Virus record (IMG/VR): IMGVR_UViG_3300032038_000053
Location: 13,788-77,787 of that record
Source of the DNA: a virus
Taxonomy: Duplodnaviria; Caudoviricetes
DNA length: 64,000 nt
Strand: one strand, 5' to 3'
The notes below the pieces were generated by a model. The model saw nothing but the letters and a program-made list of their open reading frames with translations. It was not told where the DNA came from and searched no databases. Made by a program: the position numbers and the translations under genes. Below are positions 23,076 to 38,800 of this stretch, piece after piece; position 1 is the first letter of the stretch; every line of letters begins with the position of its first letter.

Positions 23076-24854
23076 TTACTTATTTGAAGAGCTCAGCTTC
23101 AGTGGTACATCAACAGTTGACACTGTGATGTTAGTAGCTGTTCTCTTGTCAGTATTGGGAATCGGTGCATCAACGATATGACGAAGTACGCCATTATCAC
23201 CCTTCTCCGTATGCATGTGAACAGAGTAGTCCACAATATGACGGAATCCAAGAGCTTTTGACGATTCATCCTCATGAGAGATTACCAGCATTGTGCATCC
23301 ACGGGTCTCTCTGTCGATGACATCAATAACCTTTTCCTCGGTACAATACTCATCATCACGCAACCAACGGGTACGCTTGTCCAGTGCACTTGTTACCTCA
23401 TCCAGCATGATAATATCAGATGTGTTACGAACAGGATTCACAACACCTTTCTGGTAATTGCGGATATGGATAAAGAGTCTCATCAGACTGATACGAGATG
23501 CTTCGCCACCAGATGGATGAACACCTTCACCTAAGATGATAGTATCCAATCCATCAGGAAGAGCACGCAACCAGTCACCCATGCCGATGTCATCAAGCAA
23601 TTGTTCAATCACCGTATCCGGCACGTATTTATTACCCAACGTAATGTTGTTACGAAGGGTATCATACAAAAGTTCTGTCTTCTGGTGGATATAAAACACT
23701 CTAACATCCGGGGGTGTAGAGCCTTCCATTTCTCCAGCAAAGAACTTGAACAATGTTGATTTACCAACCCCTGAAGCAGCTTCGATTCTGTATCTCTTAC
23801 CACGTTTGATTTCCAATTCAGGAATCAGATAAGGATTCTTAATCTCCGTATCAGAAGCATAATGGAATCCAATATTCTTGAGAACCAATCTCTCAGGCAT
23901 AACTGGCTTTTCTTGGTATTCGACATCGTCACCTTTCAGCTTGTTGATGACTTCGTTACAACCATCAATTTCAGACTGATTAGCAACATAGTCAGTGATG
24001 AGTCCAACCATGTTGTTGATTGTCCATTCATTGAATGCGATGAAGAGTGCTAACGATGTATCATTATTAGCAAATGCGACATACAATGCCAACACACAAG
24101 GCACATTGATGAGGAAGTTGAAGAATCCCTCATACAAATTCTGTGCCGGATTGTTGCATGCAGGTGCGCATTCATATTGAACCTCTTCCTGAGTGGACAT
24201 CGCATAATCGTCAGCACCCATATATTTAAGCATTTTTACTGCTTCAAAATTGGATACTGTCACCTGATGCATATGACCTTTGAGCTCAGCCTTCACGGTG
24301 TCGCATTTCAGAAGCTTATTGCCATTCAGATAGCCAACAATGCAAAATACCATGATGACAACCATTGCAATTGCCGTTGCCGGAGAGAGTTTGAAGATTT
24401 CCCAGACAACAATAGCAAACGGAATCAGCGCCTGAAGTGTTGCCAAGATAGTTGCTGCCTGTCCGGACTTGAGGCCAGCAATTTCAGAAGTTGTATTCAT
24501 AATACTTCCAACACCAACTTCGGTAATGTCGGAGATTTTGGACTTGAGCGCCTTCTGGAAAATCTTCAGGTACCAGCTGTCGCATACATTAAGCTTGAAA
24601 GCTTTCAGAATGTAACGATAAAGAATGGATACAGCAGGAATGGCGATATTTAACAGGATAATCGAACGCATGATATTGTCGTTCATTCCATCACCAATTT
24701 CCTTGTACACAGAACTCTGATGCTTCGTGAGAATACCTAGGACAACCGCCAATCCAATATTCATCAATGCCAGTACCACCTGTGGAATCTTATGCATGAT
24801 GATATGGGAAATTTTCCACTGTGCAGATTCCGTAAACTTGTTTTTCTTTTTCAT
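23076..24854 (-). CDS. ABC transporter, fused transmembrane + ATPase domains
   Basis: several TM helices; Walker A ASGVGKST, Q-loop YIHQ, signature PSGGE, Walker B IMLDE..SALD, H-loop ISH; start MKKKNK with SD AAGGAGG. Confidence 0.9.
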   Translation of the reverse strand: MKKKNKFTESAQWKISHIIMHKIPQVVLALMNIGLAVVLGILTKHQSSVYKEIGDGMNDNIMRSIILLNIAIPAVSILYRYILKAFKLNVCDSWYLKIFQKALKSKISDITEVGVGSIMNTTSEIAGLKSGQAATILATLQALIPFAIVVWEIFKLSPATAIAMVVIMVFCIVGYLNGNKLLKCDTVKAELKGHMHQVTVSNFEAVKMLKYMGADDYAMSTQEEVQYECAPACNNPAQNLYEGFFNFLINVPCVLALYVAFANNDTSLALFIAFNEWTINNMVGLITDYVANQSEIDGCNEVINKLKGDDVEYQEKPVMPERLVLKNIGFHYASDTEIKNPYLIPELEIKRGKRYRIEAASGVGKSTLFKFFAGEMEGSTPPDVRVFYIHQKTELLYDTLRNNITLGNKYVPDTVIEQLLDDIGMGDWLRALPDGLDTIILGEGVHPSGGEASRISLMRLFIHIRNYQKGVVNPVRNTSDIIMLDEVTSALDKRTRWLRDDEYCTEEKVIDVIDRETRGCTMLVISHEDESSKALGFRHIVDYSVHMHTEKGDNGVLRHIVDAPIPNTDKRTATNITVSTVDVPLKLSSSNK

Positions 24855-24926
24855 CGTATTTCCTCCTTTGATTCGATGAAAGTGCGGGCCCTTGTGACAG
24901 AAGGGCCCTGGGTTGATATTCATACA

Positions 24927-25289
24927 TTAACCGCATACTGCGTATACGGTCTTACCGTCGAGCTCCCACTCAACGACGATTGTCAGAATTCCGAAGCTGT
25001 CCGAATCACCTACACGTACTGAGAAACCGTGCTCATGGAGATATTTGACATTTTCGAATTCCAGGAATAAGCCATCTGATGACAACAGATTTGCGGCATC
25101 ATCAGCTACTTCGTGCACCTGCGGAAGTCCACAGTAATCACCCTCTTCATCAGGTTTTGTGTGAAAATCAGCAATTGTGAACTCTTGCAGTTTCTGAACA
25201 AATTCTTCGATTGTCATAGCATTCACCTCCTTTCGATGACAAGCGCGATGCTTCCGGGGGCCGAAGCCCCCGTTCGCATCTTTGTTCAA
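24927..25289 (-). CDS. hypothetical protein (likely start at internal MTIEEF)
   Basis: SD AAGGAGGTG precedes MTIEEF. Confidence 0.65.
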   Translation of the reverse strand: MNKDANGGFGPRKHRACHRKEVNAMTIEEFVQKLQEFTIADFHTKPDEEGDYCGLPQVHEVADDAANLLSSDGLFLEFENVKYLHEHGFSVRVGDSDSFGILTIVVEWELDGKTVYAVCG

Positions 25290-25618
25290 ATCATGTCTTT
25301 CACCATTGTACCATTCTTGCGAATCGCCTGTTCTAACAGATTCATCGCCTCATGATGATGGTAAACATCATGCCAATTGCGGAAGAACGACAAATCGAAC
25401 TCCCCGTGGCAGAACCATTGGCCAGTGGCATTCTTATCCTCTTTGAGAATGAAGTCACCCTCATATGTAGGAGTAGTCAACCACTGGTACTTCCCATCTT
25501 TTCTGATAACAACTGCATTCTCATCATCAGCACTTGTCAATGCCATGTTGACATCAACAGCACTTCCGATAAGCGGCATGCTCAAATCAGAAGACAGGTC
25601 TGTGATTTTGATCTTCAT
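25286..25618 (-). CDS. hypothetical protein
   Basis: 110 aa, SD AAGGAGGTG. Confidence 0.75.
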   Translation of the reverse strand: MKIKITDLSSDLSMPLIGSAVDVNMALTSADDENAVVIRKDGKYQWLTTPTYEGDFILKEDKNATGQWFCHGEFDLSFFRNWHDVYHHHEAMNLLEQAIRKNGTMVKDMI

Positions 25619-25666
25619 AAAATCACCTCCTTTATTTGAAGATCACAAATAGACTTTCATCTATTG

Positions 25667-25687
25667 TCATATTAATAGTACATATAT
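25667..25687 (-). promoter_or_regulatory. putative phage early promoter (identical copy at 28116..28136)
   Basis: 21-nt exact repeat ATATATGTACTATTAATATGA (- strand) upstream of a gene cluster. Confidence 0.6.
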
Positions 25688-25775
25688 CAAAGTTAAAAAT
25701 AATAGAAATGACAAAGGAGGCCCAGAGGCCTCCAAAGTCAAGTGTAAAAAAAGAATTGGAAGTAAAGATGACCGA

Positions 25776-25848
25776 TTGTGGAGAAGAGATTCGAACTCTT
25801 GCATGCATGCTCCAAGGGCATGTGTCTTCACCGCTTGACTACTCCACA
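25776..25848 (-). tRNA. tRNA-Gln(TTG), atypical C33
   Basis: 7-bp acceptor, Gln-type D loop, stem CATGC/GCATG with loop CCTTGGA, T loop TTCGAAT. Confidence 0.8.
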
Positions 25849-25859
25849 TTTTATATTGA

Positions 25860-25929
25860 TGGGCCTACAGAATCGAACTCTGATAACTCGGTTATGAGCC
25901 GAGGGGTCTAACCATTGATCTATAGGCCC
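25860..25929 (-). tRNA. tRNA with CAT anticodon (Ile2/Met type), T arm 2 nt short
   Basis: acceptor GGGCCTA/TAGGCCC, anticodon arm CTCGG-CTCATAA-CCGAG. Confidence 0.75.
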
Positions 25930-25984
25930 ATGGGCTAACATAGAAAAATTACAACGAAGGTGATACTCTATTGTTCATAGAGTA

Positions 25985-26220
25985 TCGACCGTCGAGGGAT
26001 GCTTCGTCCTCCGCAAACCGTCTGTCATTTCACGTCCGGCTGATCAAGCTACACGTTCAACGTGAATACACAGTGCATCTGACCTATCCTAATTCGTAGA
26101 CTATTCAACTTCTACCGGATACACGACACTTGGAGCTACCGCGTGTTGGAATTCAGCCTCCTCATTGCTCGAGCTCACATGCCTATTCATGTGGTATTTT
26201 TATGATTCAGCTTCGGTCGA
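25985..26220 (-). ncRNA. candidate structured ncRNA of unknown family
   Basis: GC-richer spacer between tRNAs closed by TCGACCG/CGGTCGA, with several nested helices; strand inferred from neighbours. Confidence 0.55.
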
Positions 26221-26250
26221 AAAAAATATCTTACCACCAATTCAGGTGGT

Positions 26251-26336
26251 TGGTGCCGGATACAAGATTTGAACTTGCATGCTACAATAGCGCTCCGTCT
26301 TAAGCGGAGTGTGTCTGCCAATTTCACCAATCCGGC
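26251..26336 (-). tRNA. tRNA-Leu(TAA)
   Basis: cloverleaf with long variable arm, loop CTTAAGA, encoded CCA. Confidence 0.93.
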
Positions 26337-26406
26337 ATATGTGGAGATTGGGGGTCTCCACATCGCGAAAAGGATTAACGCCCGAAAGCATGTTGTTAAT
26401 CCCGAG

Positions 26407-26491
26407 CGCTGAGGGTGGGATTCGGACCCACGGGCCGTTAGGCACAGAAGATTTCAAGTCTACGCTCTTATGACCACTTGAGCACCTCAGC
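26407..26491 (-). tRNA. tRNA-Ser(TGA)
   Basis: acceptor GCTGAGG/CCTCAGC, loop CTTGAAA, long variable arm, G discriminator. Confidence 0.88.
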
Positions 26492-26533
26492 AAATGTATC
26501 TATTAGTATATAAAATAAATTAAGAAAATAAAA

Positions 26534-26563
26534 AAATAACCGGAGATTTCTCTCCGGTTATTT
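26534..26563 (-). terminator. terminator ending the Cas7-like/array transcript
   Basis: AAATAACCGGAGA-GAAA-TCTCCGGTTATTT then T run on - strand. Confidence 0.8.
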
Positions 26564-26570
26564 CGGTTAA

Positions 26571-27364
26571 ATACGTGACGTAACTGAACTTAACCATGCT
26601 ATACCAATGCATCACTGTACATACCATGCTATGCCATAACTGTACCTCACGAAGCTCAGCTATACCTTCACATTACAGTATCAGGCTTTGCTAAACTCAG
26701 CTGTACCAGTACCATACATCACCCATCATAACTCAACCAAGCTTAACCATTGCTCAACCATACTTGACTGCGCATCACCATGACACCACTCAACCAAACT
26801 CAGCTTTACCTTTGCCAAACACAGCATGACTAAACTCAATAATGCAGTACATTACCAATACAATACACACTTCACATTACGTTACCATATACTACTTTAC
26901 TAAGCCATTGCTTTACGATACTTCGATTTCCGATGCTATACCATTACTGAACTAAGCCTGACTTCACGGTGCATCATCTCACATCGCCATGCCATTACCC
27001 TACGTTACTAAACTACACCAAGCATTACTATGCCATTGCGATACACTACCCAGCTTTACCTTTGCTAAACACAGCATGACTAAACTACATAATGCAGTAC
27101 CGTTACCAATACCATACCATGCTTCACACTACTTTACCAAACCATTGCTTTACCACATACTACTTTACTAAGCCATTGCGGCACCAAACATAGCATTACT
27201 ATACCATTGCAATACATGACTAAACCAAACTAGACCTTTCACCACGTTACCTTGCCTTGACATAACTCAACCTAACTTTACCTTGACTTAGCCTTGCTTC
27301 ACTTTGCATTACACTACAAAACCAATACTATGCCAAACTACACTAGCAGAGCTACGCCATACCA
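26571..27364 (-). repeat. non-coding array of ~150 degenerate pentamers NGY-NN; candidate guide-RNA array
   Basis: - strand parses as GGT AT GGC GT AGC TC ... AGT TA CGT CA CGT AT; begins right after the RAMP stop codon, ends at terminator. Confidence 0.9.
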
Positions 27365-28009
27365 TCACTTGATGTGCTTGGAATAGTTACCACCAATCAC
27401 AGCATCGTCATTTTCTTCGTCGAGGAGTTCCCAAACGAATTTTCCTTTACCGGAGTTTCTCCATTGACCTGTGCCATGATAGTAACCATAATCCAACCAT
27501 TCTTCAATGAGTTTCTCGTCGGAATCAACCATCAGATGAATAGTGAATGTTGAATTGCTCATAGCAGGAATTGTTTCAGAGCAAGCAAGCGAGACACGCT
27601 CTCCCTGAGGTGTCTGCGCACGGAGTGGTCTCTGGCAGAGTGTAATCTCGCCACTCGGTTCAATAACACACTGACGTTCATTGATGAAGATGAGTCCATC
27701 AATCTGCTTCTTGAATGCCTTGACCTTGGAAGTAGCAGTGCCAGGAATCTTACGCATAAACGAAGCAGTTTCCTTGAAATAACCCTTCCACTGATAGTCG
27801 TAGAGGAACGGCTTTCCATCTTCAGTGCGAGGGAATACCGTTGTGCCCTTTTCGAGGGTTTCGTCAATACCAACAGCAGCGATTTCATCTTCGATTGTTG
27901 CTGCGTCTTCGGACTTTGATGCGATGAAATCCTTATAGATTTCCTTGGAGTTAGGAGCAGTACCGAGGAGCTCCTCAATAAATGTTACACGGATTTTCAT
28001 GTCTTTCAT
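27365..28009 (-). CDS. stand-alone Cas7-like RAMP protein
   Basis: N-terminal strand ending ELLGTAP, KGYFKE helix, internal thumb-like hairpin RPLRAQTPQGERVSLA.SE, C-terminal Gly-rich loop GTGQWRNSGKGKF. Confidence 0.8.
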   Translation of the reverse strand: MKDMKIRVTFIEELLGTAPNSKEIYKDFIASKSEDAATIEDEIAAVGIDETLEKGTTVFPRTEDGKPFLYDYQWKGYFKETASFMRKIPGTATSKVKAFKKQIDGLIFINERQCVIEPSGEITLCQRPLRAQTPQGERVSLACSETIPAMSNSTFTIHLMVDSDEKLIEEWLDYGYYHGTGQWRNSGKGKFVWELLDEENDDAVIGGNYSKHIK

Positions 28010-28115
28010 AATTAATCTTTCCTTTCTTAATTGGGCTATGATTCGGATATTCGGACTATATTAAACAGGGATAGTGAATTGTATTTCCCTGGAACTAAAT
28101 ATGATATTTGTGATA

Positions 28116-28136
28116 TCATATTAATAGTACATATAT
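28116..28136 (-). promoter_or_regulatory. putative phage early promoter upstream of the Cas7-like gene
   Basis: identical 21-mer to 25667..25687. Confidence 0.6.
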
Positions 28137-28176
28137 GAAAAATATAAAAATACAAATTTTGTATGGTAACCGGAAA

Positions 28177-28827
28177 TTACAGTTTGAAACGATCTTCCAA
28201 AGATTCACGTTGACAGTACTCAATCACATATGGTATTAAATCAACATGTGTTTCACAATAATGATCAATAAAATAATCGATATACGAAACAGGTATCTGC
28301 TTGATACAATCGAATTTGTTTTGTTCTACAGATTCTTTGATTAACGGGATAATTACCTTTTCAATATAAAGAGTTGTACGTGAACTCTCCGGATCAAAAT
28401 GTTCAAACCAATCTAATGTACACTCTGGAATCTCACCACGTTCCACAAACCATTTGATCAAATGCTCCCGCATGGGATCTTCCAGTCTTCCATATTGCAA
28501 AAACACTTGTGTGGTCACGACAATATCATACAATTCACGTGGTGTAATAAAATCCGATGTTTCAATTCCATGAAACTCAAATTCAAATCTCTTTTTCCAT
28601 TTCGGGAGATGCATTAATTGATCTTCTAAATCAATCATCATGTGAATCAGTGAGAAATAAATATCACCACTAGGAGTATGTTGATATGTCCCATCATTAC
28701 TAATACAGGTTTTCATTGAAACATGATTGATCATTTGTTCATACATTTGTACTTTGTGATTGATCAATCCCATTCCATCGGGTATACATTTACTGGTTTC
28801 CGGACTCAAGAAGTCGTACATAATCAT
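28177..28827 (-). CDS. hypothetical protein
   Basis: 216-aa ORF, SD AAGGAAG. Confidence 0.7.
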   Translation of the reverse strand: MIMYDFLSPETSKCIPDGMGLINHKVQMYEQMINHVSMKTCISNDGTYQHTPSGDIYFSLIHMMIDLEDQLMHLPKWKKRFEFEFHGIETSDFITPRELYDIVVTTQVFLQYGRLEDPMREHLIKWFVERGEIPECTLDWFEHFDPESSRTTLYIEKVIIPLIKESVEQNKFDCIKQIPVSYIDYFIDHYCETHVDLIPYVIEYCQRESLEDRFKL

Positions 28828-28954
28828 TTCTTCCTTTCGTTTAAAAGTAATTTAACGTGATGAAACAATAAAGAATTAAATTTGATTGGGGCCAATGGCC
28901 CCAATCACAATTCAGTATAGGAAGTAATGTACCATATGAGCAGTTAGGTACAAT

Positions 28955-29039
28955 TGGTGCTGCTTGTGAGACTTGAACTCACACGTCTTTCGACACAAGA
29001 TCCTAAATCTTGCACGTCTGCCTATTCCGTCAAAGCAGC
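28955..29039 (-). tRNA. tRNA-Leu(TAG)
   Basis: loop TTTAGGA, long variable arm, encoded CCA. Confidence 0.93.
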
Positions 29040-29116
29040 TTCATCCCGGATGGTAGTCAAGCATCCGGGTTATTACGAAAGGAAGGCTCATCTACAATGG
29101 CAGGTCATCGTAGATA

Positions 29117-29192
29117 TGGCGCCCACTGATGGACTTGAACCATCGACGCATCGGTTAACAGCCGATTGCTCTACCGTCTGAGCTAAGCGGGC
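29117..29192 (-). tRNA. tRNA-Asn(GTT)
   Basis: canonical cloverleaf, loop CTGTTAA, encoded CCA. Confidence 0.95.
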
Positions 29193-29305
29193 AAAAAGAC
29201 GGTGGTATGTTTTCATACCACCGGACAGAACAAACTAATTTTACTTTAAAGGAGTCTAAAAGCTAAGAAAAATTTAAAAAGGAAATCTTATTATGAATAA
29301 AGCTT

Positions 29306-29441
29306 TTCTGAGAATATTGGCAACTGGAATACCAATTTAATGATTTTAGATGCCAAACTGGTAAAAGCATCATGCATCAGACGTTGAATGGAGCGATGCT
29401 ATGTATGTGAAAAAGAAGTAGCCAGTTGCTCTGCATCAGAA
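29306..29441 (-). ncRNA. Y RNA (Yrl)-like element, copy E
   Basis: TTCTGA-TGCAG-AGCAACTGG-CTACTTC ... CCAGTTGC-CAATATTC-TCAGAA. Confidence 0.7.
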
Positions 29442-29500
29442 ATTATAAAAACATATTCTAGTTCGAGAGGGTTTGAATATGCGTTTATCGTATTTAATAG

Positions 29501-30103
29501 TTACCAAGTAAATGCGTAACCAAGACCGTTCTTGAGATCAGAACGAAGGGGATCTGCAAATGTTGCCTTGTTTTCCAGACCGTTTACAGTAACAATTGCA
29601 AACTTCTGTGTTGGTTCAGCTGTTACAGGTGTTACTTTTGCAGCAAAGATGTAATTAGTACCCTTCACTACCTGAGTACCTAACAGAGCAAACGGCTCAA
29701 CCTTAGAACCAACAAAGCCTTCGAAAGTCTTATCGAATACAGTCTTTGCATCTTCGGAGATTTCAGTCTTGACATCAACAACTGTTCCACCAAGACCAGT
29801 ACCACCTTCAACAACTCTTTCGATATTGACAATTGCAAAGTCGTTGCCCTTTTCATTGAGAATTACCAGAACAACATTCTTGGTATCTCTACCAGTGATA
29901 ACAACTTGTTCTGCGAGAATGGCATGATTTGTACCATTCACAACCTGAGAACCAAGATAAGCAATTGGTGTATACTGAGCACCAAGCAGCTCACCAAGCT
30001 TTTCAGTAAATGCGGAAGAAACTGTAGCAACCTTCTGTGGCATTGAGCCTGTTGTCATATCGACAATCTCGACATTCCATGTACCTACTGACATATGAAT
30101 CAT
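29501..30103 (-). CDS. tandem cystatin-like (QxVxG) two-domain protein
   Basis: internal duplication: LGSQVVNGTNHAILA and LGTQVVKGTNYIFAA. Confidence 0.6.
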   Translation of the reverse strand: MIHMSVGTWNVEIVDMTTGSMPQKVATVSSAFTEKLGELLGAQYTPIAYLGSQVVNGTNHAILAEQVVITGRDTKNVVLVILNEKGNDFAIVNIERVVEGGTGLGGTVVDVKTEISEDAKTVFDKTFEGFVGSKVEPFALLGTQVVKGTNYIFAAKVTPVTAEPTQKFAIVTVNGLENKATFADPLRSDLKNGLGYAFTW

Positions 30104-30129
30104 CTCCTAAAATAAATAAATTTAATAAA

Positions 30130-30209
30130 GTCTGAGAATAATACAATTGGCGTTAGATGTAACCGAATAAATGTTTCTGTTAGAAGTATCCAATTGTGCT
30201 GCATCAGAC
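30130..30209 (-). ncRNA. Y RNA (Yrl)-like element, copy D (minimal)
   Basis: GTCTGA-TGCAG-CACAATTGG-ATACTTC ... CCAATTGT-ATTATTC-TCAGAC. Confidence 0.7.
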
Positions 30210-30221
30210 ATCTATTTTGAA

Positions 30222-30305
30222 TTCGAGCATTTTGATATCGGTTTGGCTATAGATAGTGTTGGCAACATATAAATCTTTTGAAGTAACCGATAATCCTGCT
30301 TCGAA
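30222..30305 (-). ncRNA. Y RNA (Yrl)-like element, copy C
   Basis: TTCGA-AGCAG-GATTATCGGTTACTTC ... AACCGATATC-AAAATGC-TCGAA. Confidence 0.65.
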
Positions 30306-30571
30306 ATTCATTTTAAATTAACTGAGATGGCCGTATCTCATTCTAGGAGGTCAACCTGATGGACTATGATTATGCGTGTAAGAATATAAATCATCCAACC
30401 ATCTCAGTTTGTGGTAGCTGTTTTTTCCTGTCTTTAACGCCCTCTTCGATAAACAGCCAAAACGTCATGCGCCCGTCTTTTCAACTTGCTGGCCACCAAG
30501 CGATAGGCCGAACCCACATCCTATCCCGTACCCCTCGCAGCTTCCTTCTAATGATACTTTCTCGCATCACA

Positions 30572-32245
30572 TTATTGTGATGCTTCTATATTATCCCATT
30601 GCTTAATGTATTCGTTTGCAAATGAGATTTCTTTGCCAGTCCAACCAGTCATGATTGCACAACGATAAGCCATGATTGGCATTACAGTATTGTCATAACC
30701 AGCTGTCTGAATACAAAATACATTCAGCTTTGGATTAATCTTTTTACGATATGTTTGGATTAACTTGTATACATCGATGTGCTGTCTACCGGTAAAACGT
30801 GGTCCACATCCATATCCCATCTTTGAATATGCAGCAATATCGGAATGTTCACCATACAATCCACCAGTACCAGCTTGCATATCGGAATAAATAAAGAGAT
30901 TGTCAATGTGTTCTTTGTTCTTAATAGCACGCCATAAGTATTTCCAAATACCACCTTCGGTTGCTCCGCCAACATCATCACATTGACCCTTATCAATCTT
31001 ATGAGCCTGACTCAGAACACCCTTTCTCTTTGAGATTGGATATGCAATATACCGATCACCAAACTTAACAGCATCCCCTTCATCAGAACAAGCGCATGCC
31101 AATACAGCTGACAGATTGTCAATATTGGCAACACGAACAATTCCATATTCCGATACAAATCTACCCCAAGCAGATCCACTATTATCAGACAGAGCAACTG
31201 TTCTACCACTCAGATGTGGAAAGTTATCAACGGCAATATCAATGCATTCTTCCAAAGCATCTAAAATCATTTGTTTGTGATTGATCACATCTGTACATTC
31301 ATCAATCGCTGTATAAGCGGATGAATAACGGAACGGGAATTGTTTACCATCTGGAACTCCATCTTTCAGTTTCTGTAAGATACGTTTACAAGTATCCATA
31401 TCACTGATTTCTTTGAAGATGTTACGGAGGTTTCTCAATAATGCCATATGACCAATATCAATTGTGTGAAGAATATCAGCCCATGTTGCACCATCGGATC
31501 TCAACTGTTCCCATGTCTTTTGTTCATTAACCACGTTAACAGTACCAGTCTTCATCAGCTCGTTAATGACTGTTGAATTGGCATGGCATAAACGAACAGT
31601 ATTGATCATGCCGATTTCGAAGTTTTTATATTTGTTAATCTGAACAGGTGATAATGCCTCCAAACGATCTGCCATAGAACGTTTCAAAATAGAAGGCATT
31701 TGATTCTTCTTACCATCATTCAGCCATAAATAATAAGCAGCTTGCATTGCTGGTTCATCAGGTCTTTTCATTACCTTATATTCTAACTGTCTGAACAAAC
31801 CAGGATGTGTTTTGTTGAATTCAGCACGTTTTGGATGAAGTGCTGCACGAACCATGATGACCTGAGGATTCAATCTCATGTAATAAGTATTGCGTAAATG
31901 AACTGCCAAACGAATTGTCGCTTCATAATCATAATCCAGCGCTTTGTCAATCACATCGGTGAAGAATTCAGTTGCTGTCTTTTTATTGTATTCCGGGAAT
32001 AATGCATCAGTAATCAGATCATCAATCAAATATACGGAATCATGTGAATAATGAAATCCACCACTACTACAATAGAATCCGCCACTACGATAATACTGTG
32101 CTTCTCCAAAGATGGAAGAAGCTGCAACAAGCTGTAATGTCTGAATGGGATTTAATTTGTAACTAATTCCATTCATAAAGTTTGTTGTAGCACCAAGGGA
32201 TTCTTCTTTTTTCTGATTAGAGACTGCTCTTGAAATCTTACTCAT
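30572..32245 (-). CDS. rsr: Ro60/TROVE-domain RNA-binding protein with vWA domain
   Basis: HEAT-like TROVE region (LRNTYYMRLNP, HMALLRNLRN, KQFPFRY) and MIDAS SDNSGS; C-terminal IQTAGY. Confidence 0.92.
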   Translation of the reverse strand: MSKISRAVSNQKKEESLGATTNFMNGISYKLNPIQTLQLVAASSIFGEAQYYRSGGFYCSSGGFHYSHDSVYLIDDLITDALFPEYNKKTATEFFTDVIDKALDYDYEATIRLAVHLRNTYYMRLNPQVIMVRAALHPKRAEFNKTHPGLFRQLEYKVMKRPDEPAMQAAYYLWLNDGKKNQMPSILKRSMADRLEALSPVQINKYKNFEIGMINTVRLCHANSTVINELMKTGTVNVVNEQKTWEQLRSDGATWADILHTIDIGHMALLRNLRNIFKEISDMDTCKRILQKLKDGVPDGKQFPFRYSSAYTAIDECTDVINHKQMILDALEECIDIAVDNFPHLSGRTVALSDNSGSAWGRFVSEYGIVRVANIDNLSAVLACACSDEGDAVKFGDRYIAYPISKRKGVLSQAHKIDKGQCDDVGGATEGGIWKYLWRAIKNKEHIDNLFIYSDMQAGTGGLYGEHSDIAAYSKMGYGCGPRFTGRQHIDVYKLIQTYRKKINPKLNVFCIQTAGYDNTVMPIMAYRCAIMTGWTGKEISFANEYIKQWDNIEASQ

Positions 32246-32280
32246 ATGGATATTCCTCCTACATAAATAAATTTATAAAA

Positions 32281-32441
32281 AATTCCGAGAATATTAGAAA
32301 GAGTTTTTATGGGCACTAGAGGCCATCTAGTTTTCGTGGCTAAGTTTTACATGTATATGCCACGTTTACATGGAGCTTTCGGCTCAGAGAAGAGTAAATC
32401 CTATTATCTTCTGAAGTAACTCTTTTCTCTGCTTCGGAATT
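32281..32441 (-). ncRNA. Y RNA (Yrl)-like element, copy B
   Basis: AATTCCGA-AGCAG-AGAAAAGAGTTACTTC ... AACTCTTTCT-AATATTC-TCGGAATT, enclosing four hairpins. Confidence 0.72.
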
Positions 32442-32448
32442 ACTGGAT

Positions 32449-32559
32449 ATGTGTGAGAATGTTGGACCTGTTTCTTGTAGGACTCGAACCCACATAGTTA
32501 CCTAAACACAGTAATGATTAACCATAAATCGAAGTAACAGAGTCCTCTGCTTCACACAT
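32449..32559 (-). ncRNA. Y RNA (Yrl)-like element, copy A, with tRNA-like cloverleaf
   Basis: same terminal motif enclosing D arm GATT-TATGGT-AATC, anticodon-like arm TTACT-GTGTTTA-GGTAA and T arm GTGGG-TTCGAGT-CCTAC. Confidence 0.78.
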
Positions 32560-32597
32560 TGGTCGAAGTGACAGGGCTTGAACCTGCGGCCTCTCGT
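32560..32597 (-). pseudogene. 3' half of interrupted tRNA-Pro (variable loop, T arm, acceptor strand, ACCA)
   Basis: ACGAG-AGGCC-GCAGG-TTCAAGC-CCTGT-CACTTCG-ACCA; acceptor strand pairs with 5' half at 33555..33590. Confidence 0.8.
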
Positions 32598-32617
32598 TTT
32601 GAATATTGTTAAATTTA

Positions 32618-32692
32618 TCGGGATAACCCGGATCGAACGGGCACGATGTCCAAATCCCAAATTTGGCGGCCTACCAGTTGGCCCATATCCCG
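32618..32692 (-). tRNA. tRNA-Pro(TGG), intact
   Basis: CGGGATA/TATCCCG acceptor, CCAAA-TTTGGGA-TTTGG anticodon arm, no encoded CCA. Confidence 0.9.
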
Positions 32693-32693
32693 T

Positions 32694-33506
32694 TCAATTT
32701 TCTTCATAAAACTTCCAGTGAAATCCACCAGATGTTTCACATCTATTGTGACAACATTCACCGATATTTGTTCTATCGGCTCCTGTAAATTCAGCTGCTT
32801 GTTTTATTAAATTATAGATAACACCTGTCTCAACACAAATTACAGGTTTTCTGGTTTTAGCAGTTCGCATTCCAAAACTGTTATTGTCTAATAAAGAAAT
32901 CCATTCCAAATTCTTAAGATGATTATGCTCCTTTATCTCATCAATATGATTGATTCCCAGAATTTTCATATCATCTATTGGATTAAATGTTTCCATAACA
33001 ACTCTGTGTATGCTAACATTCTTCTCGAACCCAAAATCACATAGTTGAACACGAGAATACCCTTTCTTACTCAAAGCGGGTTTTAATATTATATTATTCC
33101 TTAGAGATCTAATACGACCATGATCTGATACCTGATAATTTTCGAAATCTTTTATAGGTCTCCATTCTTCAATATCTTCAACCCATCTCAAATTATCATA
33201 ATTAGAGTTTCTGGTGTCACCATCAATATGTTCAATTTTAGCAAAATGATCAACTAATTCTTCAGGTGGAGTAACAAATGCTCTACCAACTAATTCATCT
33301 ATTGGAAAATATCTTATATTGAATTCTGGAAATATTGAGTTTCTGGAACGTAATAAAAGTGCTATGAAATCATATCCGTTTGATGAATGATACGATGCAC
33401 AAACAGGTTCATCGTCAATATTAGATTCTGTTCGAATTCTACCGTAATTTGATATAAGAAATCCATCAGCAATTTCTGGATGCTGTAATTTTCTCCAAAC
33501 TTCCAT
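32694..33506 (-). CDS. HNH homing endonuclease (tandem NUMOD4-HNH units plus C-terminal NUMOD1-like HTH)
   Basis: EVWR..ISNYGRIR..EHIDGDTRNSNYDNLRW; EEWRPI..VSDHGRIR..NHIDEIKEHNHLKNLEW; KPVICVETG. Confidence 0.9.
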   Translation of the reverse strand: MEVWRKLQHPEIADGFLISNYGRIRTESNIDDEPVCASYHSSNGYDFIALLLRSRNSIFPEFNIRYFPIDELVGRAFVTPPEELVDHFAKIEHIDGDTRNSNYDNLRWVEDIEEWRPIKDFENYQVSDHGRIRSLRNNIILKPALSKKGYSRVQLCDFGFEKNVSIHRVVMETFNPIDDMKILGINHIDEIKEHNHLKNLEWISLLDNNSFGMRTAKTRKPVICVETGVIYNLIKQAAEFTGADRTNIGECCHNRCETSGGFHWKFYEEN

Positions 33507-33554
33507 TTATATTCACCACCTTTTTGAGATGATATATTATTATTTAAACAAGAT

Positions 33555-33590
33555 CCAAATCAAGCACTCTCCCAGCTGAGCTACACCTCG
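33555..33590 (-). pseudogene. 5' half of interrupted tRNA-Pro(TGG)
   Basis: CGAGGTG-TA-GCTC-AGCTGGGA-GAGT-G-CTTGA-TT-TGG. Confidence 0.8.
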
Positions 33591-33682
33591 AAACAAAACA
33601 TGCTTCATCACATTGCTTTGTAATTATTAGTAATATATGATGTAAAAATAAAAAATAGATGGGGGCAATTGCCCCCACCAAA

Positions 33683-33949
33683 TTACTTATTACCCCATGA
33701 GTTCGGATGCTGGAAGCCAAACGAAGAATTTGCATAAAACTGTGCATTCGGATCATTACCAATTTTCAACAGATGTTCATCACACTTCCATATTGTCGGA
33801 TAAATGTAATGGGTGTTGAACGGAACTGCACCACGTAACATGTCTTCCAGAATTGTCGATAAGTCGTTAGTAGATTCATAAAAGTGAGCCGGGGTAGCTT
33901 TCTCACCATAAATGCTATCAACGCTGTCGGTGTCAGAATAAAGATACAT
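33683..33949 (-). CDS. 88-aa protein with PolB-like motifs
   Basis: SD AAGGAAGTG, own AT-rich upstream region and downstream hairpin; YSDTDS and YANSSFG. Confidence 0.65.
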   Translation of the reverse strand: MYLYSDTDSVDSIYGEKATPAHFYESTNDLSTILEDMLRGAVPFNTHYIYPTIWKCDEHLLKIGNDPNAQFYANSSFGFQHPNSWGNK

Positions 33950-34025
33950 AAAATCACTTCCTTTGTAATGTTGATTTGAATCACGGTTGATTCTTCATTA
34001 CGTATAAATGATATATGTATCAAGA

Positions 34026-35888
34026 TTAATTATTTAATGCCTTTTCCAATAACTTATTAACTGTCGCAAAATCATCCGCACAAATCTTAGATAATTTTTG
34101 GAATCCCTTTACTGCAGCTTGCATATATTGTGTTGCAGTCTCATATACCTTTGGATTCGTTCTCCATACAGATCTATCATCTGCTTCCAAACCAGCCAAT
34201 TCATCAGCAACATATCTAGTGACTTGTAATGCTGGAGTAAGTGTTTTTGCAATTTTATCAAGAATATATAGGTAATTTGTTAAAGGCGGTTTTACTTGAA
34301 CACCATCTGCAGGGAAACCATCAAAATCATTAGAATGAAAATCATTATTCAAATACTGCTGGTCCTCTTGATAACTTGTAAAAAAGACTTTCATAATACC
34401 AGCTTGGTTTTGATCAGTAATTGCAACTTTCGTTTTGATCGGATCTAATGATGTTGCATATTTATATGCCGTAACAGCTGGTGGTTTACCGGAATACTTT
34501 GGTGTATTCACTTGGAATAATCTTTTAATTTGCATTACTTGCGATGCATAATTTGCACGAAGTTTAGATAAACCAACCGCTTCTTGAATTAATGCCCAAC
34601 AGCAATTTGCATAATATAATAATGGATCAACATCCATATTATTTGTACGATCATCCCACATATACAACATGACACCATCAGCAAATAAATCACGTAACTT
34701 ATGGCGTCTTAACCATTCCAATGCTTTTACAAATCGATGGTTTCCTTTTTCGATGAATGTTTTAATTCCGTTAATAATTTTTCCAAACAATTTAAAGATT
34801 CCACCAATTAGAGTAACCAAAATTTTGAATGGAGACATTTGCTTGTTGTATTGCTGGTTAACGGTTACTGAGATATCTTCTTGATAGAACGATGGTTCTT
34901 CCAACATCAAGATCTGATTAGACAAACGGTAATCATTTGTATACTTTGCTTGTTCCATGACAAGTCTTAATGTTTCCGCATGAATAAATGCACGTTCCAT
35001 TTCTTGATATGCCTCTTGTACATCTTCAACAGCATTTTCAATTGCTGCATCATTTGCTTCCTTCGATGCAGAATGCAAATTAAATTTATCAACAGCCGTT
35101 GTCATTGCAGAACCTTCATCCATTCCATAAGAAATCAGTTCTTCATATTCTTTACGAATATCAGGATCACGGGGAACATATTTTTCACCAGTGATCTCTG
35201 CTTTTGCAAACAGCAATTGTTCTAGATGATATCTTTCTTCATCACCAATATCAGAATACAATCTCTGAAGAATGTCAATCTTAGAAGTCTTAGCAGCTTC
35301 CATATAATCAGACAATGCCTTTGCTTCATCTGCAACAAACTCCATGATTCTTGTAATTTCTTTTGGATCATATTGATTGTTTGGTAAATCATCACCACCA
35401 TGTTGACCAAATGTTTTAATTGGATCATCATCTGGTGTATCATCTGTATTATCAATCTCCAGAAGTTCTACATCATAACCGTCATCTGATTCATCATCTA
35501 ACGTGGGAAGATCTTCATCCGTATCATTAGATGGCTCTTCTTGTAATTGTGGTTCTTCCGTATCAACCAACATTGTATCATCATCTTCATCGTCAAGTGT
35601 CGGTAAATCATCATCATCAATTTCTTCTTGTGGTTGTGAATCATCCATCCCATCAGTCATATCATCTTCATCATCTAATGTTGGAAGGTCTTCATCATCC
35701 ATATCTTCTTCCATTTCTTCAGCTTCCTGATAATAATCCTGTGATGAATAAAAGAAGTTGTCCAATCCACGACCACCTGCCATTCTCAATTGATGGTCAC
35801 GTTGTCTTTTGATCTCACGTTCACGTTTACGTTCAATCTCCACACGTCTGTTAAAATCTTCAATTGATCTCATTTGTATCATCTCCAT
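34026..35888 (-). CDS. putative virion (inner head) protein, acidic N-terminal region
   Basis: 620 aa; DEDLPTLDDE repeats; YYQE/FYQE motifs. Confidence 0.65.
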   Translation of the reverse strand: MEMIQMRSIEDFNRRVEIERKREREIKRQRDHQLRMAGGRGLDNFFYSSQDYYQEAEEMEEDMDDEDLPTLDDEDDMTDGMDDSQPQEEIDDDDLPTLDDEDDDTMLVDTEEPQLQEEPSNDTDEDLPTLDDESDDGYDVELLEIDNTDDTPDDDPIKTFGQHGGDDLPNNQYDPKEITRIMEFVADEAKALSDYMEAAKTSKIDILQRLYSDIGDEERYHLEQLLFAKAEITGEKYVPRDPDIRKEYEELISYGMDEGSAMTTAVDKFNLHSASKEANDAAIENAVEDVQEAYQEMERAFIHAETLRLVMEQAKYTNDYRLSNQILMLEEPSFYQEDISVTVNQQYNKQMSPFKILVTLIGGIFKLFGKIINGIKTFIEKGNHRFVKALEWLRRHKLRDLFADGVMLYMWDDRTNNMDVDPLLYYANCCWALIQEAVGLSKLRANYASQVMQIKRLFQVNTPKYSGKPPAVTAYKYATSLDPIKTKVAITDQNQAGIMKVFFTSYQEDQQYLNNDFHSNDFDGFPADGVQVKPPLTNYLYILDKIAKTLTPALQVTRYVADELAGLEADDRSVWRTNPKVYETATQYMQAAVKGFQKLSKICADDFATVNKLLEKALNN

Positions 35889-38800
35889 TGTTTAATTTCA
35901 TAAAGTACATTTTATCAGTTGCCTCAGAAACAACCCATCCATGCTTTAGATACATCTGTAAAGCACGATCATTGTCTCTGTTGACAGTTAAATGATCTGC
36001 ATGGAATTCGTCCACAGCAATCTGTAATAAGTCAGTACCAAATCCCTTGGTTTGATATTCTGTAGAAACTTCCAATGCAGTAATCCATCTTTCACCATTT
36101 GCTTTCTTCTCAATCGCAACATATCCAACAACAACATCTGAATTGTCAATATAAATAGCACCATGTGTATCCTTTGTAACTCTCACATGTTGTAATCCAA
36201 CTTTGAATGAACCTTGCGGTGCATATTGTTTCACAGATTTTGGTGTTAATGGAATATACTTATAATCCGCTTTTAGTTTATTATGGTGATTTTCCATATA
36301 TGATTCCTGAACAAAGCCATTCAATTTTGATTCCATTTCTTTGGGTGTTAAATCAAAGAATGTTTCTGGTTCTAATAAACCACTTTCATCAATGAATGAG
36401 ATACCTTGCTCGTTGAACAAATGATCCTTAAATGACATTAATGCATAGATTTCGAATGGTGTATCCGGATCAAAGTTATCCAATTGAGCATACAGCTTTT
36501 CACCATCTTCATTCAAATATTGTTTTTCGTGCATGAAATTGAAAAACGTAATCATCATTTCATTACGATGTCCAATACGGATTTCATCCTTAATTGCTTT
36601 CCCATTCTTGTAAATATTATCAATCATTCCAAGATATGTATCTCCATCCACAGGTTCCATGTTTGTTACATCAATCAAATCTTGATTCATGGATTCTTTT
36701 TGTTCATCTGTCAATGTAATATTGAAACTGTTGATGAGATGTTGAACTGCATCTTCCATATCTCTAACTAAGAATACACCATTCTTGTCGGGGGTTAATG
36801 ATGTTTCAATCAATACAACAGAATCTGCATCATTTGGAACAATGGTGAATTGATGCCAAAATGTAATGGGGATCTCCGGTGTTTCTTCATTCTGAATATT
36901 CACATTCAAGAAGAATACTTGATATGGCAAATCCTTTTGTTTCAATAAGTTACCAACATAGAATGCATGTTCAAAGCAACAACCAAGTTTGGATTCTTCA
37001 ATAGATTGGATTGATTGAGAATGATAATCCACAATCATCTTCCAAGAATCTTTAAATGGTGAAGCAGTGATTCGTTCTCCATCTTCATTCAAACATCCAT
37101 ATTTGATTTGTAATGCTTGTTGATAAACTTCTCCGGTCATTTGTTTTAATTCATTAACAGATACTGCTGATTCTTGGTATGATCTGTTCTGATACTTTTG
37201 ATCACGAGCCATTCCATCACAGAAGTATTGACCATGCTGACTCATCCAATCCATGCATTCTTCTTTTGTTGCACCATATTTTGGATGTCCTTTATATTGA
37301 AATACGGAATACTTGAATTGATGATAATGTTTCTTAACCGTTTTTAGACGGAACATTGTTCTGGTCAAACGATCAAACTCCATTTCCAATGCACGTTTCA
37401 ATGTTAATTTTGATTCGGTTTCTGAACCATCGACATCTTTTTTGATAACTGTCAATTCAGCAGCTAATAACTCGGAAGTATTATCACCAAATGCATCAAA
37501 TCCAAAATGGATTAAAGCATATTGATCCAGATCAGGTAAAGGAACAATTGTCAATGTATGAGTGATCGTTGGTTTTGTTTCAGTAATAATGTAGAATTGC
37601 TTGAAATCAATGCTGCGTTGTTCACAATAGTCACGGACATATTCGTTATAATCTAATGACAAACCACCCTTATACTTTTCAAACTCTTGTGGAGATAAGA
37701 AGTGATAATGTTTTTCAATCTTCTTTTCAGATTGCTCTTTCACTTTTCCATGGCTATTTGGAATACCAACCTTGTAGTTATGAATTTTATCATATAACGT
37801 TTGTAATTGTTTCCATGTTGGATGATCAAATAATTCATTATGTTTATCATGTGGGATGTCTTCTTTAAACTTGATATCGGTAAATGCTTCTTGTGTAATA
37901 TCATCATCGTCATCCAATGATTCATAATGATCTAATTCAATGATGTCTTTCGGATTGAAAATAACCGTTGCAGTTTTCGCAAATACGATATCCATTGGAT
38001 CAAATAATCCATCATATCCTTGTTTATTTAATTCTGAAACAATACGGCTATCTGGTTTAAGAAAACTAAAATGCTTAATATCATCGAATTCAAATTCTGA
38101 TTTATGATATACCTTTTCAAGAATATCAAGAACTGCATCAGCGCCTGCAATCTTTAACTCTTTTTTTAGTTTATATACAGCAATCTTTGCAGATGATTTG
38201 TTATCGACAATTCCGTGTTTTGGATCTGTATATTTCAAAGCATCTGCTCTTGTTAATGTAACATACTTTCGTTTTGTACCAATTGATTCTTTTCGATTCG
38301 TAATTCGATACAACAACGAACCAGCTTTTACTGTTTTATCTTTTACTTCTGGATATTCTTTTATAATCATATCCCAATCTTTAGAATCTACTGTTAGTGT
38401 TTTATCTGGACCAGCTGGAATGTCAATTTCACGATCATCAGAGCATTGAATCATTGTCGCTTCCTGTACAGATTCATCCAAGTATGGTTTTAAAACATCC
38501 CATTGTTCCCACGCCATATTCAATTCTTTTGCACGTTTAACAATATTCCTAGCCAATTCTTCTTTGTATTCTTCTGGAGCTTTACTAAAGAAACGAACTG
38601 CTTGTAACACGTGTGTCTCATCTGTTAATGGATATTTACGTAATGATGGAATTCCATATTGTTTATCCTTTAATTGTTTACGTTGTTCAGTGGATAACTT
38701 TCCTTCCATAAACAATTCATCATCAATAACTTCGACAGAAGAATCCATCATCATTTTGAATAACTTGTTACGAACTTTATCAACACCAGTTGAACGAATA

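Follow-up and report, generated by a model that had tools for sequence, protein, structure and literature searches.

What breaks a tRNA-Pro gene at its anticodon and leaves an intact gene for a tRNA of the same anticodon between the two pieces? The question is raised by a locus on the minus strand of a 64,000-nucleotide (nt) stretch of phage DNA (Duplodnaviria; Caudoviricetes), positions 13,788 to 77,787 of IMG/VR record IMGVR_UViG_3300032038_000053. This whole stretch, hereafter called the window, is part of a 77.8-kb record estimated to represent 29% of the genome. Between the pieces of the broken gene lie an HNH nuclease gene and an intact tRNA-Pro gene. The initial annotation had proposed a selfish homing cassette that destroys its tRNA target and compensates by supplying a replacement. 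As far as sequence goes, this interpretation is supported by the polymorphism seen in the HNH-free relative L012, by the recurrence of the layout and by a second case in tRNA-Met. It is probable that the locus holds a homing-endonuclease cassette which, in the anticodon loop of a tRNA-Pro(UGG) gene of the type called class A below, replaces the gene that it breaks. The observations themselves are an insertion polymorphism at the locus, a resident gene split in two, an intact cargo tRNA with the same anticodon, a break point that recurs and a nuclease of the homing type.

The two pieces form one tRNA-Pro gene. The 5' half (tRNA positions 1-36; 33555-33590, minus strand, 36 nt) contains the acceptor strand CGAGGTG, U8, a D arm (GCTC/GAGT), the anticodon stem strand CTTGA and the loop sequence TTTGG; it could reach to about 33551 if ATC is taken as positions 38-40. 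The 3' half (positions 39-76 including CCA; 32560-32597, minus strand, 38 nt) consists of ACGAG, AGGCC, a T arm (GCAGG/CCTGT) and the acceptor strand CACTTCG, followed by ACCA. All seven acceptor positions are paired (7/7, one G-U). The coordinates of the halves, the complementarity of their acceptor strands and the spacing of about 957 bp given in the initial annotation were all reproduced on the minus strand. When the halves were joined as 36+40, 37+39 or 38+38 nt, ARAGORN called a 76-nt tRNA-Pro(TGG). The joined sequence is identical at 67/76 positions to an intact tRNA-Pro(TGG) in L095, an IMG/VR phage of 157 kb (L095:2898-2973, minus strand), each half being about 90% identical to the corresponding part, and at 62-66/76 positions to the tRNA-Pro(GGG) of Phass-like phages, with the identity spread over both halves; the 3' half alone matches the tRNA-Pro(GGG) of Phage Phass-1 at 35/36 positions. 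Position 37 of the joined tRNA is A, where G is usual, and in the anticodon stem ACGAG, its 3' strand, pairs with CTTGA at only 4/5 positions. Compared with the intact look-alike, the sequence beside the joint is scrambled (TCAA[AACGA]GAGGCC), and the break can therefore be located only to positions 35-40. The resident tRNA-Pro is split into two non-functional halves.

A scan for split pairs, in which a 5' acceptor plus D arm was matched on either strand to a distant T arm plus complementary acceptor, returned 33590-33555 / 32597-32560 as the sole pair in the 64-kb window. Since the sequence derives from a metagenome assembly and Y-RNA elements resembling tRNAs are abundant nearby, the pairing of the fragments could be suspected of being a chance resemblance or the product of an assembly chimera. 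This is highly improbable, given the uniqueness of the pair, the resemblance of each half to a real tRNA-Pro and the recurrence of the layout across unrelated samples. Moreover, a second, independently assembled contig of 1198 bp encodes the same 270-amino-acid (aa) protein (a protein-level match). A 267-kb ENA contig (L006) also encodes this HNH protein, and its gene order, intact tRNA-Pro and split pair all match. The presence of the HNH protein on a contig of this size indicates that the source is a jumbo phage, and the host of the cassette is a giant gut/rumen phage. No close relative of the source phage was found in the GenBank phage set, nor in IMG/VR through Ro60 peptides or the tRNA 5' half.

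The gap between the halves measures 957 nt, and its content outside the open reading frame (ORF) and the tRNA amounts to 48 + 20 nt only. On the minus strand, the left end of the cassette is an A+T-rich leader of 48 nt (33507-33554) with a ribosome-binding site, GGTGGTGAA, and a stretch, TGTTTAAATAATA, that is also present in the related locus L010. The HNH homing-endonuclease gene follows (32694-33506, 270 aa), and 1 nt past its TGA stop begins the intact replacement tRNA-Pro(UGG) (32618-32692; class B below), identified as Pro(TGG) by ARAGORN and as a tRNA by Rfam (52.2 bits). A 20-nt spacer (32598-32617), largely complementary to the left joint, forms the right end. The earlier description, in which the gap holds nothing but an HNH gene and an intact, divergent tRNA-Pro(TGG) that starts 1 nt beyond the stop, was thus confirmed, the tRNA with both programs. 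This tRNA is the sole intact tRNA-Pro within the 77.8-kb record.

By sequence and by predicted structure, the ORF is a bona fide HNH/NUMOD4 protein of the I-HmuI kind. Pfam matches were obtained to NUMOD4 at residues 113-155, upstream of the HNH motif (1.4e-17), and to HNH_3 at residues 91-109 (7.3e-8); phmmer aligned residues 114-208 to residues 2-96 of I-HmuI (PDB 1U3E, 4.7e-9). An AlphaFold model built from a 9-sequence alignment had a predicted local distance difference test (pLDDT) score of 86, and its single significant Foldseek match was again I-HmuI (PDB 1U3E, 6.5e-11). H187 and N208, invariant in nine homologues, sit at the I-HmuI positions that we take to be the catalytic His and the metal-binding Asn. 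The N-terminal 113 residues hold a second NUMOD4-like segment together with the HNH_3 match, with H93 and N105 invariant, and the C-terminal end is helical and predicted to bind DNA. The protein therefore has two NUMOD4-like/HNH modules in tandem (H93/N105 and H187/N208), of which only the second aligns to I-HmuI; two nuclease modules per chain might cut both strands. I-HmuI of Bacillus phage SPO1 is encoded in a self-splicing group I intron of the DNA polymerase gene and nicks one strand. The cassette protein shares with it the NUMOD4 sheet, the HNH motif with His and Asn and the helical C-terminal end, but differs by the extra N-terminal NUMOD4-like/HNH_3 module and by the lack of a surrounding intron.

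The intact tRNA has C1-G72, A73, an anticodon loop TTTGGGA with G37, a 7-nt variable loop and no encoded CCA. Bacterial tRNA-Pro is characterized by C1-G72, A73, G35, G36 and G37, and the cassette tRNA matches both this feature set and the cloverleaf. Relative to the copy in L010, its acceptor and T stems carry compensatory changes in both partners of a pair, which a working tRNA would be expected to show. An encoded CCA was considered as a mark of foreign origin and proved uninformative, since the tRNAs of the window itself are mixed in this respect.

An HNH-free version of the locus was found with the Ro60/TROVE gene of the window (30572-32245, minus strand; Pfam TROVE 2.1e-7) as query. The relative, a 12.6-kb Logan contig (L012), encodes a Ro60 protein that is 88% identical (1513/1674 nt) and has the same gene order, namely a 600-aa gene, a small gene, a gap and Ro60, with no HNH gene. 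Its gap contains one unbroken tRNA-Pro(TGG) (L012:3088-3162). In the window, the first Y-RNA-like element (32449-32559, minus strand; tRNA-like fold, Rfam tRNA 30 bits at 32469-32538) begins directly after the CCA of the 3' half, and in L012 the same element directly follows the intact tRNA-Pro. The upstream flanks are identical at 48/51 nt (window 33650-33600 against L012:3006-3056), the match ending 9 nt before the 5' half and being complete from CATCATATATT through GAAGCAT; a conserved 43-nt block within it (33600-33642, minus strand), common to L012, is a possible promoter region of the unit. The downstream Y-RNA flank, from TTCGACCA, is identical at 109/128 nt. The HNH gene is thus sporadic at this locus, present in the source phage and absent in L012, while the flanks are conserved.

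Since L012 carries a single tRNA-Pro between matching flanks, the two halves are the two ends of one resident gene, and since its slot lacks the HNH gene, the HNH-tRNA block is an insertion relative to L012. The initial annotation had called for a related phage with an uninterrupted locus, and L012 provides one, with one tRNA-Pro(UGG), no HNH gene and matching flanks. The possibility it had raised that the halves are independent remnants does not agree with these flanks, which place both halves at the ends of one slot. The L012 tRNA-Pro is a different allele, with 41/75 identity to the joined halves, and is therefore not the exact pre-insertion sequence. It is nearer to class B (67% identity to the L007 copy) than to the broken class-A genes, and could be a spare that remained after loss of the nuclease gene. 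Two further contigs, L128 and L129, were rejected as empty sites: their Ro60 proteins (59%) are too distant, and they carry tRNA-Met, tRNA-Phe and Y-RNA-like elements at this place.

The protein search returned just three HNH clusters above 60% identity (L010, L011 and L007-9), and all three have a tRNA 5' fragment ending in ..TG (anticodon positions 34-35), then the HNH gene, then an intact tRNA-Pro(TGG). In the source phage the fragment ends in ..TTTGG and the stop-to-tRNA distance is 1 nt. The fragment ends in ..TTTG in L010 (HNH 80% identical, distance 0 nt) and in L011 (63%, distance -24 nt, the stop codon lying within the tRNA D loop), and in ..CCTG in L007-9 (62%, distance +18 nt). The layout in which a tRNA follows the HNH stop, which the initial annotation had suggested searching for, was therefore seen in all three clusters, with a broken 5' fragment upstream. 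A Y-RNA-like motif, GAAGCAG...TACTTC, lies 3' of the tRNA at the source locus, L010, L011 and L007-9. The sequences upstream of the 5' fragment differ, being a terminator and the conserved block in the source phage, unrelated sequence in L010 and tRNA-Leu(CAA) in L007.

After the tRNA, the 3' half is absent in L010, L011 and L007-9. The L010 and L011 contigs stop 32 and 48 nt past the tRNA, entering the Y-RNA motif directly, and a relaxed search of L007 (6.8 kb) for a partner of its 5' fragment gave no match preceded by a T arm. With the 5' fragment alone left in each of the three nearest relatives, the spreading form is probably 5' fragment-HNH-tRNA; the source phage, which still has its 3' half, would be the exception. 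Two details of these loci were also recorded. In L011 (58-951), the HNH ORF overlaps the next tRNA-Pro by 24 nt; with the stop codon in the D loop, processing of the tRNA by RNase P would strip the stop codon from the mRNA, which could act as a brake on nuclease expression. In L007, the stretch directly after the cassette tRNA (2863-2890, GGTGTTTCAAACACCTTAGC..) is similar to the upstream tRNA-Leu(CAA) at L007:1850-1881 in the region of its T arm and 3' end, and could be a recombination scar or a mere small hairpin.

The tRNA-Pro sequences fall into two classes. Class A comprises the 5' fragments of the source phage, L007 and L011, which are 73-90% identical to the tRNA-Pro of L095 or Phass-1; the L010 fragment is more diverged (61-67% to intact phage tRNA-Pro). 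Class B comprises the post-HNH tRNAs of the source phage, L010 and L007, which share 70-91% identity with each other and 41-63% with the fragments, and which are marked by the D stem GGCC/GGCT and the D loop AAYTGGTA. The post-HNH tRNA of L011 is class-A-like. Between the source phage and L010, the 5' part of the cassette tRNA is 91% identical and the HNH gene 80% (nt), while the 5' fragments are only 61% identical. The post-HNH tRNAs of L007 and L011 are far more divergent than their HNH genes.

A second split tRNA was found at L088:329-1311 (Logan SRR32996447 contig, 1515 bp; P0007), where the HNH protein is 43% identical. The order is a tRNA-Met 5' half (GGGCCTT...ATCGGCTCA), an intact tRNA-Met(CAT) at 378-453, the HNH gene at 482-1273 and a 3' half ending CTCAG-TTCAAGT-CTGAG-AAGGCCC-A. 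The pair was recovered by the split-pair scan, and the halves joined as 35+42 nt were called tRNA-Met(CAT). The break follows anticodon position 35, and the TAA stop of the HNH gene provides tRNA positions 36-38. Hence the break lies at the same anticodon position at five loci and in two tRNA species. A further arrangement was noted at L124:1301-2295 (P0013), where an intact tRNA-Lys(TTT) and a 41%-identical HNH gene are followed by a 52-nt tRNA remnant (GTCCGTT, ACTTTAAT, a T arm and AACGGAC ACCA), which includes the acceptor strand and a partial anticodon loop and looks like a tRNA minus its D arm and 5' anticodon stem.

HNH homologues below 50% identity lie mostly among protein genes, or beside tRNA-Gln(TTG) without halves, and the IMG/VR and JGI metagenome loci of distant homologues (24-47%) contained no split tRNA. 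In the JGI loci L096, L100, L103 and L121, the HNH gene (42-47%) lies about 90 nt downstream of tRNA-Gln(TTG) in a Met/Leu/Lys/Gln cluster, with no halves detected; the HNH frame of L100 appears broken (222 + 155 aa). One further split-pair candidate, L089, was rejected because it is on the strand opposite to the tRNA genes of its locus; others, at L017, L090, L093 and L095, are in tRNA-dense loci and are presumed to be false positives of the same kind.

In the proposed mechanism, when related phages infect the same cell, the HNH protein would nick or cut their unbroken class-A tRNA-Pro genes within or close to the anticodon loop. The cassette-bearing genome would then serve as template for repair of the break, so that the HNH gene and its own tRNA are copied in. 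The class-B spare would be protected from recutting by its differing stems, and the cost of insertion would be low, tRNA-Pro function being kept by the phage. Normal repair through downstream homology (Y RNA/Ro60) would delete the 3' half of the recipient and give the 5' fragment-HNH-tRNA arrangement of the relatives. In the source phage, the right joint may have formed imprecisely, just after the cassette tRNA, hence the retained 3' half.

Several points weigh against this interpretation. The break positions are the sole basis for the presumed target site and for the presumed resistance of the spare. The anticodon-loop core TTTGGG is common to all intact tRNA-Pro(UGG) compared, of both classes, so that resistance would have to rest on the stems. 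The intact tRNA of L012 is, by sequence, not class A, and an unbroken copy of the split allele was found only in unrelated phages, not in a close relative. The three closest relatives are equally well explained by insertion of an HNH gene into the first member of a tandem pair of tRNA-Pro genes. Finally, the complementarity between the spacer and the left joint is a sequence feature that simple homing does not predict.

In an alternative origin, an ordinary free-standing HNH gene landed among tandem tRNA-Pro genes, the halves being unrelated scars of recombination or deletion and the intact tRNA a neighbour. Tandem Pro(TGG)/Pro(GGG) genes do occur in Phass-1 and in four IMG/VR contigs, the relatives keep the 5' fragment only, and other members of the family lie beside tRNAs without halves (L096, L100, L103, L121) or among protein genes. 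Nevertheless, this origin is unlikely for the locus in the window, where the intact tRNA is nested inside the broken one, an order that tandem genes plus one deletion cannot give, and where HNH-free L012 holds one tRNA-Pro rather than two. It also agrees poorly with the shared break position at the five loci and with a cassette tRNA that appears to track the HNH gene in the L010 comparison (91% for the 5' part of the tRNA, 80% for the HNH gene, 61% for the fragments).

The complementarity of the spacer concerns another question, namely whether the halves could still be joined in RNA. The core of a group I intron (P3-P9) takes roughly at least 200 nt. Such an intron was rejected here: no Rfam match was obtained at E<=1 over 24000-36000, just 48 + 20 nt are free, and every joint that gives a valid tRNA leaves an insert ending in A instead of the terminal G. 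The earlier remark that a group I core would not fit into the gap accordingly holds. Read in reverse complement, the 20-nt spacer largely matches the left joint, which comprises the anticodon loop and the beginning of the leader, and in RNA the two are predicted by cofolding to form a helix of about 20 bp that prolongs the anticodon stem. The cofold energy was -30.0, against -26.4 +/- 2.1 with the insert ends shuffled, and 11/200 shuffles were as good. The equivalent helix of L088 is stronger (1/200 shuffles as good), with part of the fold pairing unrelated parts of the sequence, and L010 has no spacer. The helix could be a fold-back repair scar or a processing signal.

A bulge-helix-bulge intron, or repair by ligation, was rejected as well. 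The internal loops of the predicted junction helix are of 1 nt, where 3-nt bulges separated by 4 bp would be expected, and no bulge-helix-bulge is present in the cofold; RtcB, tRNA_int_endo and RNA_ligase domains were not found in the 77.8-kb record, a weak negative as the record covers 29% of the genome. Still, the locus might be a functional intron-like unit from which RNase P and RNase Z free the nested tRNA, after which a nuclease-plus-ligase pathway rejoins the halves as a second tRNA-Pro, the complementary cassette ends and the acceptor stem having kept both halves together in one transcript. The full cloverleaf potential of the halves and the helix at the joint, seen also in L088, are consistent with such a unit, as are the tRNA introns of the Lak megaphage, one of which contains a possible tRNA (bioRxiv 10.1101/356790). 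We consider it improbable in view of the missing group I features, the marginal helix of the source phage, the A at position 37, the scrambled strand at positions 39-43 and the failure to find splicing-endonuclease, RtcB or RNA-ligase domains. In addition, neither the spacer nor the 3' half is present in L010, the closest relative, and the 6.8 kb of L007 contain no 3' partner. Decidedly doubtful, too, is a version in which the split tRNA-Pro is alive through protein-assisted phage tRNA splicing, a transcript of about 1 kb folding as a tRNA with a giant insert in its anticodon arm. In this version, RNase P and RNase Z would excise the nested tRNA, and the halves would be trimmed and ligated. 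If true, such a pathway would also process the unexplained tRNA introns of huge phages.

Returning to the homing cassette, its relation to known systems can be considered. To our knowledge, homing endonuclease genes survive in essential conserved sequence by two routes, the self-splicing intron and the intein. The cassette locus would represent a third route, at the DNA level, in which the gene is broken and a spare, presumably uncuttable by the nuclease, is brought along. Group I introns occur in the anticodon loops of bacterial tRNAs, as in the cyanobacterial tRNA-fMet with I-Ssp6803I, where RNA self-splicing restores the tRNA. The cassette likewise has its homing-endonuclease gene sited in the anticodon loop but, unlike those introns, contains no ribozyme core, and it is a second gene that would make good the loss, at the DNA level. 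In Aeromonas phage Aeh1, nrdA is split by mobE, and in T4 the topoisomerase gene is divided as 39/60; the split proteins reassemble and are functional. As at the cassette locus, a gene is divided in two by a homing-endonuclease gene that no intron surrounds. Reassembly of this kind is not open to a tRNA cut in its anticodon loop, and a spare is carried instead. Split inteins in fractured genes have also been described (PMC2677866).

The closest comparison among tRNA genes is T4 SegB, a free-standing GIY-YIG homing endonuclease that lies in a tRNA cluster, recognises a T-arm motif and carries neighbouring tRNA genes into phages without them (PMC2330249, PMC13096335). The cassette resembles SegB as a phage homing endonuclease among tRNA genes, with presumed recognition of a tRNA gene and a tRNA that presumably travels with it. 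SegB lies between intact tRNA genes and leaves no broken target, whereas the cassette enzyme is of the HNH/NUMOD4 type and lies inside a tRNA gene, at a break in the anticodon loop; the tRNA that presumably travels with it, unlike those of SegB, duplicates the function of the destroyed gene. Free-standing genes of the SegB/MobE type lie between intact conserved genes, and the HNH gene was found between two halves that belong to a single tRNA gene. Full-text searches of the literature returned no account of a tRNA gene that houses a homing endonuclease together with a replacement tRNA. The cassette is a variant of the free-standing homing endonucleases for which no matching published description was found.

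The Lak inserts mentioned above share with the cassette a tRNA nested in a tRNA gene of a huge gut phage and a presence/absence polymorphism. Unlike the cassette, they have no reported nuclease gene and were read as introns; by analogy, they could be leftovers after loss of the nuclease gene. On the cassette model, the published "tRNA within a tRNA intron" of huge gut phages would have an origin that can be tested. It would also explain odd tRNA fragments in phage tRNA clusters, and tRNA alleles that diverge (about 41/75) far beyond their flanks (85-94%). Nucleases of this HNH clade have targeted two tRNA species, tRNA-Pro and tRNA-Met, at one common anticodon position, and possibly further isoacceptors. 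The recurrent site points to a retargetable nuclease scaffold that reads the anticodon region of tRNA genes, of possible interest for nuclease engineering.

The cassette locus lies directly upstream of a Ro60/Y-RNA module. A terminator-like hairpin with a T run (33658-33679, minus strand; 9-bp stem with 7 G-C pairs) closes the 88-aa gene upstream and forms the boundary at which the tRNA/Y-RNA/Ro60 unit begins. A sigma-70-like promoter across the left joint (33563-33536) was rejected, as its 9/12 matches were equalled by shuffled sequences. Y-RNA-like elements upstream of phage Ro60 genes, in the window and in L128, show tRNA-like folds; at L128:1268-1418, a tRNA-shaped RNA has its anticodon arm swapped for a long insert with ATTCTC, GATGCGG and TTACTTCG motifs, like bacterial YrlA. 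With E<=1e-3 as the cut-off, the candidates scored included 3790 homologues of the Ro60/TROVE protein of the window. They come from assemblies in ENA, Logan, JGI and NCBI, a Ruminococcus metagenome-assembled genome being the one named source. Contigs of 200-290 kb account for many of the best 120 homologues listed, and this suggests that Ro60 is carried by a large clade of jumbo phages. The window also contains a second, free-standing HNH gene (61313-62050, plus strand, 245 aa) between protein genes, which shares with the tRNA-associated HNH gene a 53-nt stretch of 83% identity.

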